Positions 23,368 to 30,928 of a stretch of DNA of 30,928 bases are shown piece after piece; the stretch's first letter is position 1, and the number at the start of each line of letters is the position of its first letter. The notes below the pieces were generated by a model that was not told the origin of the DNA, did no database searches, and saw only the letters and a program-made list of their open reading frames with translations. The position numbers were made by a program, and so were the translations under genes. The stretch lies in assembly GCA_043812195.1 (NCBI GenBank), contig JBDRML010000024.1, positions 1 to 30,928 on the forward strand. The letters are read 5' to 3'. Source of the stretch: Candidatus Woesearchaeota archaeon. GTDB lineage: Archaea > Nanobdellota > Nanobdellia > SCGC-AAA011-G17 > PNOQ01.

Positions 23368-24093
23368 ATGCAGTTAATATACAAAGACGCAGTTTGGAAA
23401 AAAGAAATTAAATTAGGAAAAGAACTAATTGATTATCTTAAAAAGAATAAAACAAAGTCTATAGCTCTATTCGCATCAGTTCAATTCTTAAAATTAAACA
23501 AAGTAAAAAATCAGTTAAAAGAACTAAACATAAAGATAAACACTGCAAAAGCAAAAAGAACTGAAAAAGAAATTCAAATTTTAGGTTGTGACACTTATCA
23601 TGATTCATTCAAAGAAAATATAATTAAAAATTCAGATTTAATTTTATATATCGGAGATGGTTTATTCCATCCAAAAGCACTTTTACTATCTCAAAGAAAA
23701 AAAGATATTCTAATTTGGGATCCAGTTTCAGAAAAAAAACAAATTCTAACTAAAAAAGAAATCACAAAAATACTATTAAAATTAAAAGCCAATATTAAAA
23801 AATATTTAATGGCAAAAAATATTGGAATCTTAGTAACAATAAAGCCAGGACAGCAATATCTGCACTTAGCTAAAGAATTAAAAGAAGATTTAGAAAAAAA
23901 AGGAAAAAAAGCTTACATATTCATAGACAACACATTCTATTGGAATGAACTAGAAGGATATCCTTTCATAGAGTGTTGGGTTAACACTGCATGTCCAAGA
24001 ATAGGTTTAGACGATATAGTAGAAATCAAACAACCATTAATTAATATTAAAGAAGCTTTAAATACAGAAAAGGTTTTAGAGGAATTAGCTTAA
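23368..24093 (+). CDS. dph2: Dph2 C-terminal part (split gene)
   Basis: QILGC, GDGLFH, KPGQ, NTACPRI (second and third Cys). Confidence 0.85.
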   Translation: MQLIYKDAVWKKEIKLGKELIDYLKKNKTKSIALFASVQFLKLNKVKNQLKELNIKINTAKAKRTEKEIQILGCDTYHDSFKENIIKNSDLILYIGDGLFHPKALLLSQRKKDILIWDPVSEKKQILTKKEITKILLKLKANIKKYLMAKNIGILVTIKPGQQYLHLAKELKEDLEKKGKKAYIFIDNTFYWNELEGYPFIECWVNTACPRIGLDDIVEIKQPLINIKEALNTEKVLEELA

Positions 24094-25256: not shown

Positions 25257-25494
25257 ACACTTCTCAATATTTATTCATTTATAAAAATTGTGTCTTCTTT
25301 TCCCACCGCCCCAAATCTTCTTTTTTAGAAAAAAAGAAGCAAAAAAGAACGCGCACCTCAAATTTAATAGGATGGCTAAAAACCCACCTGAAATAAGAGA
25401 GATTTTAGAAATATCATAACGGAGAATTAGAAACTTGCTCCGTTTCACTCCGCACCACGCCTTGCAGGCTTTCATAAAATCAAAGATTTTATTC

Positions 25495-25522
25495 AGGTCG
25501 CTGAACAGGGCTTATGTGCAAT
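25495..25522 (+). repeat. dif-like site S1
   Basis: AGGTCGCTGAA-CAGGGC-TTATGTGCAAT. Confidence 0.75.
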
Positions 25523-25523
25523 A

Positions 25524-25796
25524 TTACTCGGGCTTTGGAATTATAGAAAATCTATCTTCCATTTCTTTTAAAATCGCATTCCGATCATCCCACATTGTAA
25601 CAGAATCACAAGCTCTATTTCTAACACTGTCATACATTACAACTTTCTTATTCGTCGACCAATTGGGAAGATGTCTATATTCCTTAGATAATAATGTAGA
25701 AAATTCGTCATTAATTTCAATTACAGCGTCACGGTTACTATCTCGAGCGGCTGTAACCATTCTTTCCAATGTTTGGTATATTTGTGATTCCGACAT
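25524..25796 (-). CDS. Cassette 1 hypothetical protein (90 aa, MSESQ...KPE)
   Basis: Start moved to ATG 25796; TTTATATA box at 25820-25827; the longer track ORF runs through the linker. Confidence 0.7.
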   Translation of the reverse strand: MSESQIYQTLERMVTAARDSNRDAVIEINDEFSTLLSKEYRHLPNWSTNKKVVMYDSVRNRACDSVTMWDDRNAILKEMEDRFSIIPKPE

Positions 25797-25888
25797 GTTT
25801 ATACAGTAATTTGAACCCATATATAAATATATTCCAAAGTCCTGTGTCATACTGTCGGTCGCTTCGCTCCCTCGTTCGCCTTGCAGGC

Positions 25889-25916
25889 TCACCACATAAC
25901 AGCGATTAGTTTCAAT
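25889..25916 (+). repeat. dif-like site S2
   Basis: TCACCACATAA-CAGCGA-TTAGTTTCAAT. Confidence 0.8.
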
Positions 25917-25961
25917 TCAAAAATCGTGCTCCCAAAGTTATTCGAGGCAAGAATTGTTATT

Positions 25962-26105
25962 TTATTTAAATTCTAGAGTTTTATAAAGAATTTTTGGTTC
26001 TATTTGAGAAGCTCTTACCATAGCATCTGCTCTTTCATAACCTGCTCTTAATTCAGCTTCTCTTTCTCTTACCATAGCATCTGTATCTATCATTATGTCT
26101 ATCAT
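25962..26105 (-). CDS. Cassette 2 micro-protein (47 aa), absent from the ORF track
   Basis: MIDIMIDTDAMVREREAELRAGYERADAMVRASQIEPKILYKTLEFK; BRE/TATA CCGAAAGTTTTAAATA upstream; fills the space between two inverted-repeat pairs. Confidence 0.65.
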   Translation of the reverse strand: MIDIMIDTDAMVREREAELRAGYERADAMVRASQIEPKILYKTLEFK

Positions 26106-26279
26106 GTTTTTAATAAAATAACACTACTATTTAAAACTTTCGGTTATTAGTCTTTTAATAGTAGTTACAATTCTTGCCTCTCAATATTCTAAATTCCCGT
26201 CCACCCATGCACAATTTTTGAACTCGAGATTTTTCGGCTTCGCCGAACATTGCATTAAAATCTCGTCCTCATTACATTC

Positions 26280-26307
26280 GAAGAAACTAACACTAATTAT
26301 GTGCAAT
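26280..26307 (+). repeat. dif-like site S3
   Basis: GAAGAAACTAA-CACTAA-TTATGTGCAAT. Confidence 0.8.
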
Positions 26308-26322
26308 AAAAATGAGTTGCCC

Positions 26323-26646
26323 TTATTCTTTACGTTCAAACTCTACAAGAATATCAACATTCTCATAATCACAAGTAATATTTAAACCTTCAAGGTTTGA
26401 AATCTCGCATTCACATCTGCTCTTGTCAACATAGCCTATACAATTTTCCCAAGTAGGTGTATCATAGGTAATTTGTTCCACACTAACTTTGAAACCGTAA
26501 CAAGGACACTTTATGGAACCTAATAGACCCATTACATTATTGGCATCATACGAAGTTCTTTTGGGGTAAAAAAATATCGCCAGTAAAATTAGAATAATAA
26601 TTATGAGGATTATTGCTTTTCGGTTCTTAAAAAAAGAAACATTCAT
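26323..26646 (-). CDS. Cassette 3 membrane-anchored Cys-rich protein
   Basis: Start moved to ATG 26646 with a TATA box upstream; N-terminal TM helix and six Cys. Confidence 0.7.
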   Translation of the reverse strand: MNVSFFKNRKAIILIIIILILLAIFFYPKRTSYDANNVMGLLGSIKCPCYGFKVSVEQITYDTPTWENCIGYVDKSRCECEISNLEGLNITCDYENVDILVEFERKE

Positions 26647-26790
26647 AAAAAAATTAGAGATAATAGAAATATATAAATCTATTGCTTCGGGCAACTCATT
26701 TTTACTTCTCTAAATCTTGATGTTAAACGAAATAATGCTCAGCACAAAGTGAATAGAAAACTTTATATTATCTATTAATAAATTAATGAT

Positions 26791-27051
26791 ATGCAATGGA
26801 AAGAATTTTTTAAACCAAACATTTTCAAGATTATTTTAACAATTATCTTGTTAATTGCGTCACTTTATGGAATATATTATTTGATTTTTTCTCTGTCATA
26901 TTATGTTGGCGAATGTGTTCCAGGTAGTTCATGTCCTAATTTCTCTGAATTAGCACTAAAAGGCGTTCTCTACTCTTCTATTCCTGCACTTTTAATCAAT
27001 TATTTAATTTCCTGTATAATATATTCAATATATAAAAGAATCAAAAAATAA
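26791..27051 (+). CDS. Cassette 3 second gene, small two-TM protein
   Basis: Two TM helices around a CVPGSSC loop; TTTATA box upstream. Confidence 0.7.
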   Translation: MQWKEFFKPNIFKIILTIILLIASLYGIYYLIFSLSYYVGECVPGSSCPNFSELALKGVLYSSIPALLINYLISCIIYSIYKRIKK

Positions 27052-27096
27052 AAATTATTTCCCTAATTCATTTCTTTTCAGTCGCTTCGCTCCTTC

Positions 27097-27124
27097 AGGG
27101 CACATAACAGCGATTATACTCAAT
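27097..27124 (+). repeat. dif-like site S4
   Basis: AGGGCACATAA-CAGCGA-TTATACTCAAT. Confidence 0.8.
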
Positions 27125-27202
27125 TTTCTTCCATATTCACTCCAGAAAACTCAAAAATCTTAATATCAGACAAGCTGATTTAATAATATTTTGGCCTTAA
27201 CA

Positions 27203-27230
27203 GGCGAGTCTAACACTAATTATGTACAAT
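27203..27230 (+). repeat. dif-like site S5
   Basis: GGCGAGTCTAA-CACTAA-TTATGTACAAT. Confidence 0.8.
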
Positions 27231-27231
27231 A

Positions 27232-27501
27232 TTACTCGACCGCCGCCTTTAATTTCTGTAAAAGTTGTTTTATTTCATCTATCTCAATATGCAGAATTTT
27301 CGGTTCTTTTCTTCCCTCAATTTCATCCATCACAGAGAATCCGTCAATCACATCTTGTGTTTCGCCATTTAGTTTTTTATATGCCTCAAATTCTTCGTTT
27401 AGAAATCTACTGCAAATTTCCGCAATTTCTTCTCTAATCTTTCCACTATCGTTCTGGATTAGGTCTTCCAGTTTCTCAATTAATTTACTTATCAATTCCA
27501 T
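27232..27501 (-). CDS. Cassette 5 small acidic helical protein
   Basis: ORF with TTTATATA upstream; stop lies in the conserved TATTACTC. Confidence 0.7.
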   Translation of the reverse strand: MELISKLIEKLEDLIQNDSGKIREEIAEICSRFLNEEFEAYKKLNGETQDVIDGFSVMDEIEGRKEPKILHIEIDEIKQLLQKLKAAVE

Positions 27502-27573
27502 AACGAAATGAAAAACATGATACTATATAAAACTTGTGCGGCGGTCTGCGTCATACTATCCCCTCGCTATCGC

Positions 27574-27601
27574 TCGACACATAACACTGATTAAGTTCAA
27601 T
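27574..27601 (+). repeat. dif-like site S6
   Basis: TCGACACATAA-CACTGA-TTAAGTTCAAT. Confidence 0.8.
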
Positions 27602-27636
27602 TTTCTTCCATATTCACTACAGAAAACTCAAAACCC

Positions 27637-28074
27637 TTAATCTCTAAAAATATACTCGCCTTTTTCTTCGTAAACAATCGCTCCCTTAAACGGCTCTTTT
27701 GTTTTATAAAGAGGCGACTGATATGCCTGATTCAGAATTCCAGCAACCTCATCAGCAGTATCTTTATTAGTTCCGTTAGGATATGTTGCTTGTAACATGT
27801 AATTTATACCATCTTGTTTTGCTTCTTGAGCAAGAGCAGTTAATCTCTTGTCGCCTTCTATGTTATCCATACCTTCAATTAAAGAAAGTTCTAACTGAGA
27901 GGGTGTTCTAACAAGTTCGCGAATTGTATGTAATTCTGTTTCAATTTCTTGTTTTGAAGCATCGCAATAAAAAAATCCATATGCTTTTCCAATTTGTTTA
28001 GCCATGTGACTCTCTCTAGTTACTTTATTGCCTTTTTTATCAATAAATGCATATGATTTAATTTCTTTTTCCAT
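27637..28074 (-). CDS. Cassette 6 hypothetical protein
   Basis: ORF with CGAAAGGTTTATATA BRE/TATA upstream. Confidence 0.75.
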   Translation of the reverse strand: MEKEIKSYAFIDKKGNKVTRESHMAKQIGKAYGFFYCDASKQEIETELHTIRELVRTPSQLELSLIEGMDNIEGDKRLTALAQEAKQDGINYMLQATYPNGTNKDTADEVAGILNQAYQSPLYKTKEPFKGAIVYEEKGEYIFRD

Positions 28075-28213
28075 ATTATTACTATGTATTAATAAGTATA
28101 TAAACCTTTCGTTTTATAACTACTCAATAGAGACTATAAACTATTAACTAAGCCAGCCCGAACTCTCCTTCCGCTTCGCTTCAGTCGGGACGTTACACTT
28201 TTTCCTTCGGAAA

Positions 28214-28241
28214 ACCACGCAGAACAGACATTATGTAACAT
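28214..28241 (+). repeat. dif-like site S7
   Basis: ACCACGCAGAA-CAGACA-TTATGTAACAT. Confidence 0.75.
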
Positions 28242-28313
28242 ATTACTCGGCAACCTTAACTTTCTCACCGATAGTTTTATTAGAACATTATGTATAATAG
28301 TCAACAACTAAAA

Positions 28314-28730
28314 ATGACAGAAAAATACTATATTGATACGTCAATTTGGATAGACCTTGTTGAAGATAGAAAAGGCTACAACGACGAACCATTAGGAAGT
28401 TATGCTCTTAAACTATTTGCTATGATTAAAGCCAAGAAACACAAAATGGTTGTTTCTGATCTTTTAATCAGAGAATTAGAATCGAATTATTCCATGGAAG
28501 AGATTAATGGAATGATGCTTCCGTTTCAAAAAATAATGGAAAAAATATTTGTCACTAAAGAACAACATGATGAAGCCAAAAAAATCGCCGAAGAAAGAAA
28601 TCTACCTCCAAGTGATGTGCTTCATGCAATTGTAGCAAGAAATAACAATTATACCATGATCACTAGGAACAAACACTTCAAGGAGTTAGAAGACATTACT
28701 AAACATTCAAAACCAGAAGAAATCATCTAA
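28314..28730 (+). CDS. Cassette 7 PIN-domain (VapC-like) protein
   Basis: YIDTSIWID, ELE, DVLHA, ITRNKHF; start moved to ATG 28314. Confidence 0.88.
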   Translation: MTEKYYIDTSIWIDLVEDRKGYNDEPLGSYALKLFAMIKAKKHKMVVSDLLIRELESNYSMEEINGMMLPFQKIMEKIFVTKEQHDEAKKIAEERNLPPSDVLHAIVARNNNYTMITRNKHFKELEDITKHSKPEEII

Positions 28731-28984
28731 GTATTTTTAGAAATTTCTTCAAATGCTTTAGCTCTTATCTTCTCATAATCTTTTTCTGTTGTCTTTTTCT
28801 TAACGCTACCTTTTAGATGAACTAATTCCATCATTGCTTTCTTTAACTTAATCTCTTCAACTTTCTCTCTAAGAGCATTCCTAATAAATTCTGTTCTATT
28901 TTGGTAGCCTTCATTCTTTACGACTTTGTCTACTTCTCCCAAAAATACATTATCCATTTTGACAGTTATCATCTCCGTTACCAT
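28727..28984 (-). CDS. Cassette 7 ribbon-helix-helix (CopG/NikR-like) protein
   Basis: ITVKM...VDKVV...GYQNRTEFIRNALR. Confidence 0.88.
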   Translation of the reverse strand: MVTEMITVKMDNVFLGEVDKVVKNEGYQNRTEFIRNALREKVEEIKLKKAMMELVHLKGSVKKKTTEKDYEKIRAKAFEEISKNT

Positions 28985-29127
28985 ATAGCCATTGCATATA
29001 CAATAACTATATAAACTTTTCTATCATTTTCTTATAAAATACATAATGTCACTATAAATCGATCAGCTCAGACGGTTGCCTGCGTCATAACGCTGACATC
29101 TTCGATGTCAGGTGGAACATAAAGCTC

Positions 29128-29155
29128 CATTTGCATAATACCAATTATACTCAAT
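29128..29155 (+). repeat. dif-like site S8
   Basis: CATTTGCATAA-TACCAA-TTATACTCAAT. Confidence 0.8.
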
Positions 29156-29208
29156 AAATTTGTAGCCCGAGATATTATTTGCTTATTCACTTGTAGAACA
29201 AAATAAGC

Positions 29209-29604
29209 CTAGTCATCAAGAGGAGTAAAATATTGCTCGAAGAGTTCCATGCTTTTTCGGAGATAGCGAGCCTCTTGGTCCGATTTATCCTCTTTTGCTT
29301 CGTAAAGCTCAGAAGCTCGTGTGTATGATCTCGCTTGGCTGGTTAACAAGTCGTTAGCCCAGGCTTCTAGGTCGTCAGCGGTCGTGTAAGGTAGTAAATG
29401 TACATTGCGATCTTTTCCCATGAATTCCATTTCTCCATAAAGACCAGCACAAGCTCCAGAGTGAACAAGATACCTCAACGTGATTCCTTCATTCAATCTA
29501 AATCTTCGACTGTTGACCATTACTTCTGTGCCGGCTTCTATTTGGTATGTGCCGCTTCCGTCAGGGAAGACACCCAATTTCACTTCTATTGGTGATAGTT
29601 CCAT
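29209..29604 (-). CDS. Cassette 8 hypothetical protein
   Basis: ATG 29604; enclosed by two nested inverted-repeat pairs. Confidence 0.7.
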   Translation of the reverse strand: MELSPIEVKLGVFPDGSGTYQIEAGTEVMVNSRRFRLNEGITLRYLVHSGACAGLYGEMEFMGKDRNVHLLPYTTADDLEAWANDLLTSQARSYTRASELYEAKEDKSDQEARYLRKSMELFEQYFTPLDD

Positions 29605-29754
29605 ATTCAAGGAGAACCTCTGCTTATTTTTATAATTATGGTTTTTACTCAGGCTACAAATTTACTTCTCCGCTCCTCGTTCACTTCGTGAACTGCGGTG
29701 CTCAACCCCATTGCATTCTCACCTCGTTTATTAACTTCGTTATAAACTCGGCTC

Positions 29755-29782
29755 GGGGAATATAACACCAATTAGTTACAAT
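29755..29782 (+). repeat. dif-like site S9
   Basis: GGGGAATATAA-CACCAA-TTAGTTACAAT. Confidence 0.8.
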
Positions 29783-29785
29783 CGC

Positions 29786-30415
29786 TCAGGGTCGCCTTGC
29801 ATATATTTCCCAAAAAGCTGATTTTTTACTTGGGAAATTTTCACTTACACCTTCAAAATCCTTTAATTTAATGATTTCATACCTTTTAAAGAATTCTCTC
29901 ATCTCTTCCTCTGCAAAATAATGATGAGGCATGTCTCCGTCAATGGAGTCAATATTAATTTTTGTATTTGGTTCAATTTCCTTACCAGTTAAATATTCAG
30001 GGTGTTTTGTTGATGGAACTCTCAGAAATAATACACCTCCTTTTCTTAATACTCTATAAATTTCAGAAATAGTTTTTTTTATTTTTGCTATTTTTCCATG
30101 TTCAATAACAAAATCGCATAAAACACCATCAAAAAAACTATCTTTATATGATAAAGAAGTCATATCACATTGTTTAAATTCAATTTCTTTTAAAATCTCA
30201 CGTGATATTTTTAATGCACTCTCCGATGAATCACAGCCATAAACTTGAAAACCTTGTTTTAATAAATAAAGAGTATGCCTTCCAGTTCCACAGCCCAAAT
30301 CGAGAATTCTTTCTAATCGTTCTTTTTTAAAAAAATCAGCAGCTTCAATAACTTTTATAGATGGTTCTTTCTGAACTATTCCTTTCTCTTTGTATAATGA
30401 ATCCCAATCCTTCAT
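29786..30415 (-). CDS. Cassette 9 class I SAM-dependent methyltransferase
   Basis: ILDLGCGTGRH, GCDSS, CDM, RVLRKGG. Confidence 0.9.
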   Translation of the reverse strand: MKDWDSLYKEKGIVQKEPSIKVIEAADFFKKERLERILDLGCGTGRHTLYLLKQGFQVYGCDSSESALKISREILKEIEFKQCDMTSLSYKDSFFDGVLCDFVIEHGKIAKIKKTISEIYRVLRKGGVLFLRVPSTKHPEYLTGKEIEPNTKINIDSIDGDMPHHYFAEEEMREFFKRYEIIKLKDFEGVSENFPSKKSAFWEIYARRP

Positions 30416-30507
30416 AATATAATAAAAAGTAATTTTAATATATAAATACTTCTATGGGCGACCTTGAGCGACTTTTCTACCGAAATTTTACCCCACTTCG
30501 TAGGGTA

Positions 30508-30535
30508 AAAGAAACTAACACCAATTATACAACAT
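30508..30535 (+). repeat. dif-like site S10
   Basis: AAAGAAACTAA-CACCAA-TTATACAACAT. Confidence 0.8.
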
Positions 30536-30537
30536 TA

Positions 30538-30789
30538 TTACTCGACAGAATTCCTATGTGGCTCCCAGTTCGGATTCCAGGTACCAGATGTAATCATTAA
30601 AGAGAATTCAAGTGCTGATTGCACTTAGCATAAAGACGGTTCTATTCTTTCATAACTTGCTCGGGCTGCTTCATAACTTTTCTGGATAAGTGTTTGCCCT
30701 GAATCAGAAACTATTCCAGCTAATGCTATAGCATAGAGTGATGTGGCCCCCACACCAACCAACAAATTAAGTCTTAAGTTCTTATCCAT
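30538..30789 (-). pseudogene. Cassette 10 gene (83 codons) with one in-frame TAA
   Basis: ATG 30789, hydrophobic N-terminus, TAA at 30625-30627, frame then stays open to the conserved GAG-TAA at 30538. Confidence 0.6.
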
Positions 30790-30928
30790 AAAGGAGATAA
30801 TTCATCAAGTTTTAAATGTTTATCGGAATTCTGCCTACGTCATACACAAAACCTTTATTGTCCTAATTCCGTTTCACTTCATTATAATCATAAATCTTTT
30901 GGTTTGCTCCATTTAACGCTCACTCTCC

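Follow-up and report, generated by a model that had tools for sequence, protein, structure and literature searches.

Integrons and clusters of attC sites lacking integrases (CALINs), as described by Ghaly et al. 2022 (PMC9668308), are tandem arrays of small gene units separated by imperfect palindromic hairpin sites with cores of the type RYYYAAC...GTTRRRY, in which the unit boundary falls at the R' core, the sites are more alike within a genome and the hosts include archaea of the DPANN type. All of these features recur at the locus reported here. Two questions about integrons are open: where cassettes come from, and what brings two adjacent sites of a strand together in such a way that precisely one cassette is released.

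We analysed a stretch of 30,928 nucleotides (the window), which is the whole of contig JBDRML010000024.1 (C24) from the genome of a Candidatus Woesearchaeota archaeon (GCA_043812195.1, here G000; 938 kb, 45 contigs, 28-31% G+C), and in which an array of small gene units and repeated sites extends from position 25320 to the end. In most units the cargo gene and its promoter are enclosed by one or more pairs of inverted repeats (arms) that differ from unit to unit, and the two ends of a unit pair with each other far more strongly than with the ends of other units. We lean towards reading these repeats as the closing helices of an integron-like gene cassette, acting on single-stranded DNA (ssDNA) in recombination. 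A diphthamide-synthesis gene (23368-24093) marks the window as archaeal. The final 141 bases of the window overlap, as the reverse complement, with the end of contig C37, where the array goes on for about 3 kb, and further parts of the array lie on contig C30 (three cassettes) and at the end of contig C36 (one site).

Complementary arms bracket most cassettes

The preliminary description of this DNA had reported that a different inverted-repeat pair brackets most cargo genes together with their promoters, at or near the arm of a site and in some cases inside coding 3' ends. All eleven arm pairs that it listed were recovered at their positions and with their match counts when we checked the sequence. 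Unit 1 has its left arm at 25530-25541, in the last codons of a minus-strand open reading frame (ORF), and its right arm at 25831-25842 (11 of 12 positions paired). Two pairs are nested in unit 2, an outer one at 25916-25929 and 26209-26222 (13/14; predicted pair probability 0.89/0.98) and an inner one at 25944-25957 and 26167-26180 (14/14). The arms of unit 3 (26307-26322 and 26689-26704) pair at every position (16/16; probability 0.98), as do those of unit 5 (27238-27246 and 27538-27546; 9/9; probability 0.91/0.99), whose left arm is coding sequence for the last residues of the ORF. Nesting recurs in unit 7, with outer arms at 28249-28255 and 29074-29080 (7/7, weak alone) and inner arms at 28285-28295 and 29039-29049 (11/11; probability 0.93), and in unit 8, with outer arms at 29155-29171 and 29648-29664 (16/17; probability 0.86/0.97) and inner arms at 29200-29208 and 29622-29630 (9/9). 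In unit 9 (29782-29796 and 30457-30471; 14/15; probability 0.98/0.92) the left arm includes the stop codon of a methyltransferase gene and the codons just before it, and in unit 10 (30544-30554 and 30825-30835; 10/11, weak alone) the right arm is followed by CTACGTCATAC and by a site that goes on into C37. The overlap with coding 3' ends holds for units 1, 5 and 9, and the enclosure of the promoter for units 1, 3, 5, 7 and 9, where a TATA-like TATATAAA on the plus strand lies 3-23 nt inside the right arm (25820-25827 in unit 1, at the minimum distance of 3 nt; 26670-26677 in unit 3; 27524-27531 in unit 5; 30439-30446 in unit 9).

The arms occupy a fixed place beside the recombination sites. 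The left arm starts 4 nt past the R' hexamer in 7 of 17 units, including the outer arm of unit 8, and 12-15 nt past it in units of class I, which start with ATATTACTCG; from the end of the right arm to the next site there are 35-107 nt, which hairpin modules fill. Most arms are unique in the genome, and they are 7-17 nt long, nested at irregular spacings, GC-rich at their cargo end in a genome with 28% GC, and in some units part of coding sequence. The earlier claim that the repeats are cassette-specific needs narrowing: the sequences do differ between cassettes, but the class-I cassettes have conserved boxes in common beside their variable arms, and at least one set of three helices is common to two other genomes around unrelated cargo (see below). 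All five arm mismatches are of the transition type (G.T or A.C); their asymmetry was considered as a strand indicator and rejected, as G.T falls on the plus strand in two cases and on the minus strand in three.

Cognate ends pair beyond chance expectation

To keep the choice of sequences independent of the repeats, 16 units were delimited by site motifs alone (window, C37 and C30), with the left end taken as the 50 nt after the R' hexamer and the right end as the 120 nt before the next site. In 12 of the 16 units the duplex formed with the unit's own other end was stronger than that with all 15 non-cognate partners, and the summed cognate duplex energy was -270.3 kcal/mol, compared with -139.7 ± 7.7 kcal/mol (minimum -169.9) over 20,000 derangements (z = -17; z = -18.8 with wider end windows). 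A duplex energy of -16 kcal/mol or lower was reached by 10/16 units and by only 5 of 3000 random window pairs of the same span from the rest of the genome, where a stem score of at least 13 did not occur at all (0/3000). When the windows were anchored on genes instead, 6/17 cassette genes and 2/700 ordinary ORFs (60-320 codons; sampled from 733) reached this energy, so that equally strong flanking repeats, which the preliminary description had proposed to look for around ordinary genes, are rare in this genome.

Folding each cassette as a single strand with its flanking sites under DNA parameters, a further check it had called for, gave a closing helix whose mean pair probability reached 0.7 or more on either strand in 12 of 13 cassettes, the exception being unit 1. 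Moreover, the junction of an excised circle, in which the end of a cassette is joined to its own start, folded 3.1-27.7 kcal/mol better than the array junction, on either strand, in eight of eight cassettes. The idea that a single strand would loop out the gene and bring the cassette ends together agrees with these predicted folds, and it may extend to folding in the cell and to a role in excision.

One helix family bears on whether structure rather than sequence is selected. Its arm AAAATTTCC[A/G]TTTC pairs with GAAA[T/C]GGAAATTTT, and the variable position forms A:T in two cassettes and G:C in two others, so that the match is kept inside every cassette; in one relative (G007), cassettes of the two types are neighbours. 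It is the family, described below, of the helix set that G007 and G069 have in common around unrelated cargo. We used matches with 0-1 mismatch for this family, as a search of 240 genomes with two mismatches returned about as many hits as controls, mostly noise. This compensated A:T to G:C change is an indication that the pairing itself is maintained, and the GC-rich arm ends, the irregular nesting and the arms within coding sequence are an indication in the same direction. The selection of structure claimed earlier is indicated in this one helix family, and some complementarity may have been inherited with the cassette backbone and not selected pair by pair, because a whole helix set and the class-I boxes are common to several cassettes.

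Cassette boundaries and recombination sites

Alignment with two genomes of the same family (G012 and G019) delimited a conserved, attI-like array-start platform at 25320-25514 (plus strand) that ends at the first R'-type core. The homology of the three genomes runs through GAACAGGGC, up to a common ...GGC, and breaks at the TTA of the core, beyond which the first cassette differs per genome; as in integrons, the cassette boundary lies inside the R' core. The R'-type core TTATGT of the first site (25512-25517, plus strand; motif family D1/D3) is thus the probable place of crossover. At the opening of the platform lies a near-palindromic A/T-rich element (CTTCTTTTTTAGAAAAAAAGAAG...; 25314-25346), whose read depth is 150-600x in four metagenome runs, where either side shows loose ends, and which also stands ahead of the first sites in other genomes (loci L077 and L057).

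Calls of attC in the array rest on site motifs and folding rather than on a covariance model. The sites on C30 and C36 are textbook attC hairpins with paired L boxes (left ACATAAC, ACCTAAC or GCATAAC, right GTTATGT or GTTATGC; folding energy -27 to -50 kcal/mol), and these sites, together with one in the window, have the R''/R' cores RYYYAAC/GTTRRRY, the L boxes and the hairpin that define attC. The window site is short (27101-27225, plus strand) and was recognised by sequence and fold as ACATAAC AGCGA TTATACTC ... GAGTCTAAC ACTAA TTATGT. At most other junctions in the window a GC-rich hairpin module comes first, and after it a single simple site of the form TAAC-N5-TTANNN-NCAA. Between units 1 and 2 (25843-25915, plus strand), a CTGTGTCATAC box and a GC-rich hairpin segment precede an ACATAAC-N5-TTAGTT motif; this 73-nt site reaches about 100 times the genome depth in two metagenome runs (X2 and X4), and 10 of 60 relatives contain matches to it by blastn. 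Between units 2 and 3 (26223-26306, plus strand), the hairpin module CTCGAGATTTTTCGGCTTCGCCG... is followed by CTAAC-ACTAA-TTATGT, and copies that are 80-95% identical stand beside other arms in many genomes of the order. With at least two attC sites in a row and no integrase nearby, C24 and C37 carry an array of the CALIN kind.

In 17 of 19 sites the minus strand is the better folder; for a site taken to be an attC, this would be its bottom strand. Minihairpins of the form C-TTC-G on the plus strand, or C-GAA-G on the minus strand, number 13 in the 11.5 kb of array, as against 29 in 880 kb of other contigs. In the class-I cassettes the ATATTACTCG start motif co-occurs with a CTRYGTCATA(A)C end motif in five of five cases; a second attC-like site in this class (ATATTAC ... 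GTCATAC) was considered and set aside, its boxes being present in five cassettes only. We likewise rejected the notion that cargo sits in the loop of a giant attC, as it fits units 2 and 9, where both boxes of successive simple sites form pairs over the cargo, and not the other units.

Two further repeats deserve mention. The site between units 11 and 12 (C37 12118-12163) contains a 45-nt hairpin module composed of a stem, a GCC-TTC-GGC minihairpin, an unpaired CGTTRCACT and a stem, which is 93-98% identical in more than 20 genomes from several families and whose unpaired segment resembles an R'-type core. In the window, an 86-nt direct repeat (79% identity; 27082-27167 and 27559-27644) joins a site to the sequence flanking the unit 6 gene on its 3' side, and its first copy has the appearance of what is left of a lost copy of the unit 6 cassette.

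The same design in other genomes

Of 239 other genomes of the order, 99 contain matches to parts of the array, and most public metagenome-assembled genomes that carry this cassette motif have the label Woesearchaeota or Nanoarchaeota. A scan of such loci for strong inverted repeats found the same design beside R'-type cores in G017 (17/17 and 15/15 paired), G032, G054, G058, G033, G199, G144 and G031, and the first cassette of G012 has helices of 14/14 and 13/13; these examples give no denominator, because they were found through their repeats. Among the metagenome matches listed for one cassette start, 80 contigs in all, about 35 had an R' core ahead of the start; the partner arm was found on 11 contigs and was absent from two whose downstream sequence covered at least 4.5 kb.

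Some cassettes with the same start are 3-5 kb long (metagenome loci L126, L138 and L159; GTDB loci L251, L263 and L276). Near their left end GGGGAGTTC is present in several copies, and near their right end there is GAACTCCCC, a layout reminiscent of a transposon, with its multi-site ends, travelling as a cassette.

Four metagenome runs from different studies contain 55-91% of the stretch. None of the listed strain single-nucleotide polymorphisms falls in an arm, which is uninformative given that arms make up only about 4% of the stretch. Two joints in these runs (30928 to 27578 and 27647 to 27590) had suggested cassette reordering, and we discarded this interpretation, as they are explained by the similarity of two sites in 27 of their first 28 bases together with the 86-nt repeat.

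Cargo genes and common shells

The cargo consists of genes that are ordinary for this order. Unit 7 (28314-28984) holds a PIN gene on the plus strand (to 28730; PF01850, 1.4e-10) and a ribbon-helix-helix gene on the minus strand (28727-28984; PF17723, 4.6e-8), unit 9 a S-adenosylmethionine-dependent methyltransferase gene (29786-30415, minus strand; PF08241, 1.9e-22) and unit 6 a gene for 145 residues of no family (27637-28074, minus strand). Among the 16 single-gene cassettes of the window, C37 and C30, 12 have the gene antisense to the site orientation and four sense; together with the TATA-like boxes inside the helices, this sets them apart from the cassettes of bacterial integrons, which mostly lack promoters, share the orientation of the sites and are read from a common promoter. 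The ORFs of units 1 and 5 run through the left arm, and both end with Glu-stop from a conserved CGAGTAA box (25524-25532 and 27232-27240); the unit 13 ORF (C37 10975-10990) takes its TGA stop from the conserved TCAA linker. From these sequences, the cassette backbone seems to provide the stop codons in units 1, 5 and 13.

The preliminary description had also suggested a look at homologous cassettes. Besides the compensated helix family, this comparison showed that the ordinary homologues of three cargo genes lack the repeats. Of 11 loci homologous to the PIN and ribbon-helix-helix pair, 10 are ordinary places without site motifs or helices and one (in G031) is a cassette with quite different helices, and homologues of the unit 6 and unit 14 cargo also stand in ordinary genome places without helices, those of unit 6 being ordinary genes with the same promoter region. 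The homology of unit 7 to non-cassette copies covers 28313-29032 and ends inside both helices, with the inner arms outside it; the helices therefore come with cassette status. A different inverted repeat of 9-15 nt (region 28266-28275 and 29117-29126) is situated between the PIN coding region and the region where the ribbon-helix-helix gene starts. Non-cassette homologues (L028 and L031) have it too; it is not one of the cassette helices, and may be an operator.

A cassette of G007 (cassette X) and one of G069 have three nested helices and all modules in common (85-92% identity) and nothing in common between the innermost arms, and the right-end set of this arrangement (inner arm, module, outer arm, module) is also found in G044 and G183. 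Judged by these alignments, some helices belong to "shell" families that enclose unrelated cargo and are not cassette-specific.

Recombinases near the arrays

Matches to tyrosine recombinases in G000 are confined to contigs C36, C1, C15 and C45, with none on C24 or C37. The best of them (C36 7125-7919) lies beside the C36 site and scores 168 bits with the integron integrase model TIGR02249 (cut-off 265), in two pieces that skip model positions of about 195-239, that is, without the IntI-specific insert. Its best family is the archaeal XerA family NF040815 (201 bits; cut-off 220), and its closest solved chain is XerA 4a8e (151 bits); IntI4 2a3v reaches 117 bits in two stretches. No integrase with the IntI-specific additional domain thus stands beside the array in G000, and none of five other array-bearing genomes has an integron integrase above the cut-off.

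Recombinases of the XerA type do adjoin array starts. In G012 and G019 a Xer-like recombinase that points away from the same platform is located at a distance of 0.8-1.3 kb, and in G031 a XerA-like recombinase adjoins an array (C8 13284-14111). The placement beside the array start, facing away, is the layout of integrons and is seen at G012:C3 (L280 1957-4044), G019:C12 (L287 298-1873), G031:C8 and G000:C36. In a tree, the array-adjacent recombinases form two lineages and not one clade. Archaeal cassette arrays are widespread in small-genome archaea, with self-promoted genes and with Xer-like rather than IntI-type recombinases adjoining them.

Proposed closing helices and their alternatives

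The reading towards which we lean is as follows. A cassette extends from the TTA of an R'-type core as far as the next such core and begins with a linker of 4-13 nt and one to three left arms, complementary to arms 35-107 nt ahead of its own recombination site, with small GC-rich hairpin modules filling the gap. When the array is single-stranded, pairing of the arms would loop out the cargo with its own archaeal promoter and place the site upstream next to the one downstream, an arrangement expected to promote the removal of precisely one cassette. Once the circle has been excised, arm pairing would extend the attC stem outward past the R box into a long branched hairpin, which should keep a weak AT-rich site folded. 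The data above establish the pairing, where it lies, how general it is, its predicted stability and the cassette boundary at the R' core; folding of the strand in vivo, its use by a tyrosine recombinase and raised rates of excision or insertion would be further parts of this model. It fits bacterial data, as given in two reports: excision needs both sites folded at once and falls with distance for poorly folding sites (PMC5371416), and a cassette can be excised from linear ssDNA by single strand exchange (PMC12614218).

A bolder version, which we offer tentatively and think rather unlikely in full, is that the helices and hairpin modules form a self-contained shell and are the real working unit of a Xer-run, integron-like system without the IntI insert, which would pre-assemble both sites on one strand for exchange of one cassette at a time and would acquire new cassettes when chromosomal genes with their promoters are loaded into the shell tip. 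If so, this lineage would show cassette genesis in progress, which is unsolved for integrons.

Several observations weigh against closing helices as a general device of recombination. Units 4 (26791-27051) and 6 have no closing helix, and the helix of unit 1 has a low predicted probability (0.24/0.03). A profile search of G000 found no IntI-type integrase and XerA-like recombinases only. Helices that close loops of 0.3-5 kb must compete with single-strand-binding proteins in the cell, and we saw no circular junction. In one metagenome run (X2), a contig joins 25857 to 27081 and lacks units 2-4 (1223 nt), and the joint lies in a 13-nt GC-rich repeat, GTCGCTTCGCTCC, which contains a minihairpin of the GCGAAGC type, before the cores and not in an R' core; we could not account for this loss by integron-type exchange, and it may be a deletion between short repeats, and other events therefore also shape the array. 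The helix set common to G007 and G069 surrounds unrelated cargo, and complementarity can therefore be inherited. Finally, of 45 stretches on GTDB contigs with an exact 27-mer, eight had the partner and six lacked it in at least 4.6 kb downstream (31 were not judgeable), and a survey anchored on hairpin modules found a partner within 1.6 kb at only 2 of 9 judged sites in other genomes; on inspection several of the partnerless sites of the latter survey looked like array-start sites or decayed remnants, so that it gives no clean denominator.

The main rival is complementarity by descent, in which arms, modules and attC are one hairpin-shaped shell that is copied as a unit, with cargo placed between its halves. 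The arms would then match because they descend from opposite sides of a single palindromic element, and no present function would be needed. We regard it as the lesser prospect as a complete account, and a serious one. The three helices and modules that the G007 and G069 cassettes share without sharing cargo, the recurrence of the right-end set in G044 and G183, the 45-nt module that is nearly identical in more than 20 genomes, and cargo genes that are ordinary for the order and bring their promoters along all fit a copied shell. Against it, a search for solo shells, with matching arms on either side of one site, found none: only 1 of 12 sites had such a match, and the two cassettes next to that site belong to one family. 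The matched A:T to G:C difference would take either two substitutions or some process of correction, and the arms of G000, mostly unique, short, irregularly nested and sometimes coding, fit upkeep of the pairing better than one founding event. Descent is compatible with closing helices that act in recombination, and both can be true.

The remaining explanations are far less probable. A role at the RNA level, in which the arms form a transcript stem for processing, circularisation or stabilisation (of the rRNA type, in ORF-bearing intervening sequences, or as a bulge-helix-bulge), has precedents in the long closing stems around genes and RNAs in rRNA operons and intervening sequences, and our folding energies come from DNA parameters only. 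Such roles are nonetheless unlikely because the promoters lie inside the helices: in units 1, 3, 5, 7 and 9 the upstream arm is beyond the TATA-like box, so that the gene's own transcript would lack it and would not hold both arms. In addition, the helices enclose cargo of either orientation, inspection by eye revealed no bulge-helix-bulge geometry, and the side hairpins of the bottom strand have C-GAA-G loops, which we take to be a DNA minihairpin motif. An inversion switch, in which the repeats let cargo flip within the cassette as in invertons, is if anything slightly more improbable still. Arms that are inverted repeats around promoter and gene, and cargo found in both orientations (12 of 16 antisense, 4 sense), would suit it, but invertons occur in both orientations within a population and have conserved repeats that are read by an invertase, and no single site-specific invertase could read these arms because they differ between cassettes; at 7-17 nt they are also short for homologous inversion, and no strand-changing joint was reported in contigs of the four runs, a weak point given that contigs drop rare variants. 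As for chance, or an artefact of AT-rich base composition, short inverted repeats rich in A/T are indeed frequent, and the 7/7 pair of unit 7 and the 9/9 pair of unit 8 would not stand alone; the derangement, random-window and ordinary-gene controls and the recurrence at the same place beside sites in other genomes contradict it, and we give it almost no weight.

Comparison with known systems

The closing-helix layer is, so far as we found, undescribed for integrons: full-text search listings on attC sites and integrons yielded no description of helices that close a cassette, and the word 'inverted' does not occur in the main text of Ghaly et al. 2022 (PMC9668308). Our own comparison covered archaeal genomes and metagenome contigs rather than bacterial integrons. 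This lineage bears on both of the questions raised at the outset, as it has an extra structure that pairs a cassette's own ends, cargo with ordinary homologues in relatives, and the same shell around different cargo; both questions therefore become testable by comparison and by excision assays.

Four groups of described systems come near the arrangement seen here. In integrons, the gene units, hairpin sites and R' core boundary are alike, whereas the present array adds long-range helices from the start of a cassette to the stretch before its own site, and hairpin modules from helix to site; its cargo has its own promoter and is mostly antisense, at many of its window junctions the cargos are separated by a single simple site, and its recombinases are without the IntI-specific insert. 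The Xer sites cer and psi offer a likeness of logic only, in that DNA beside the core and outside the strand exchange unites two direct repeats so that one segment is resolved, and the recombinases near the present arrays are Xer-like. At cer and psi, accessory proteins wrap double-stranded DNA and impose intramolecular selectivity, whereas here we propose base pairing within a single strand, different from cassette to cassette. Intrastrand pairing of distant or inverted segments of ssDNA is also the principle of attP(+) of CTX phage, of the ends of IS608/IS200 elements and of the panhandles of adenoviruses and parvoviruses, where a panhandle joins both ends of one linear ssDNA molecule. Each of those families has one conserved structure, in contrast to the many helices found here with one site family and around ordinary cellular genes. 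The ORF-bearing intervening sequences of 23S rRNA and other hairpin-closed gene cassettes, in turn, enclose a small gene in a long closing helix; they act as RNA, inside rRNA genes, whereas here the promoter lies within the helix and the units stand between sites of the attC type.

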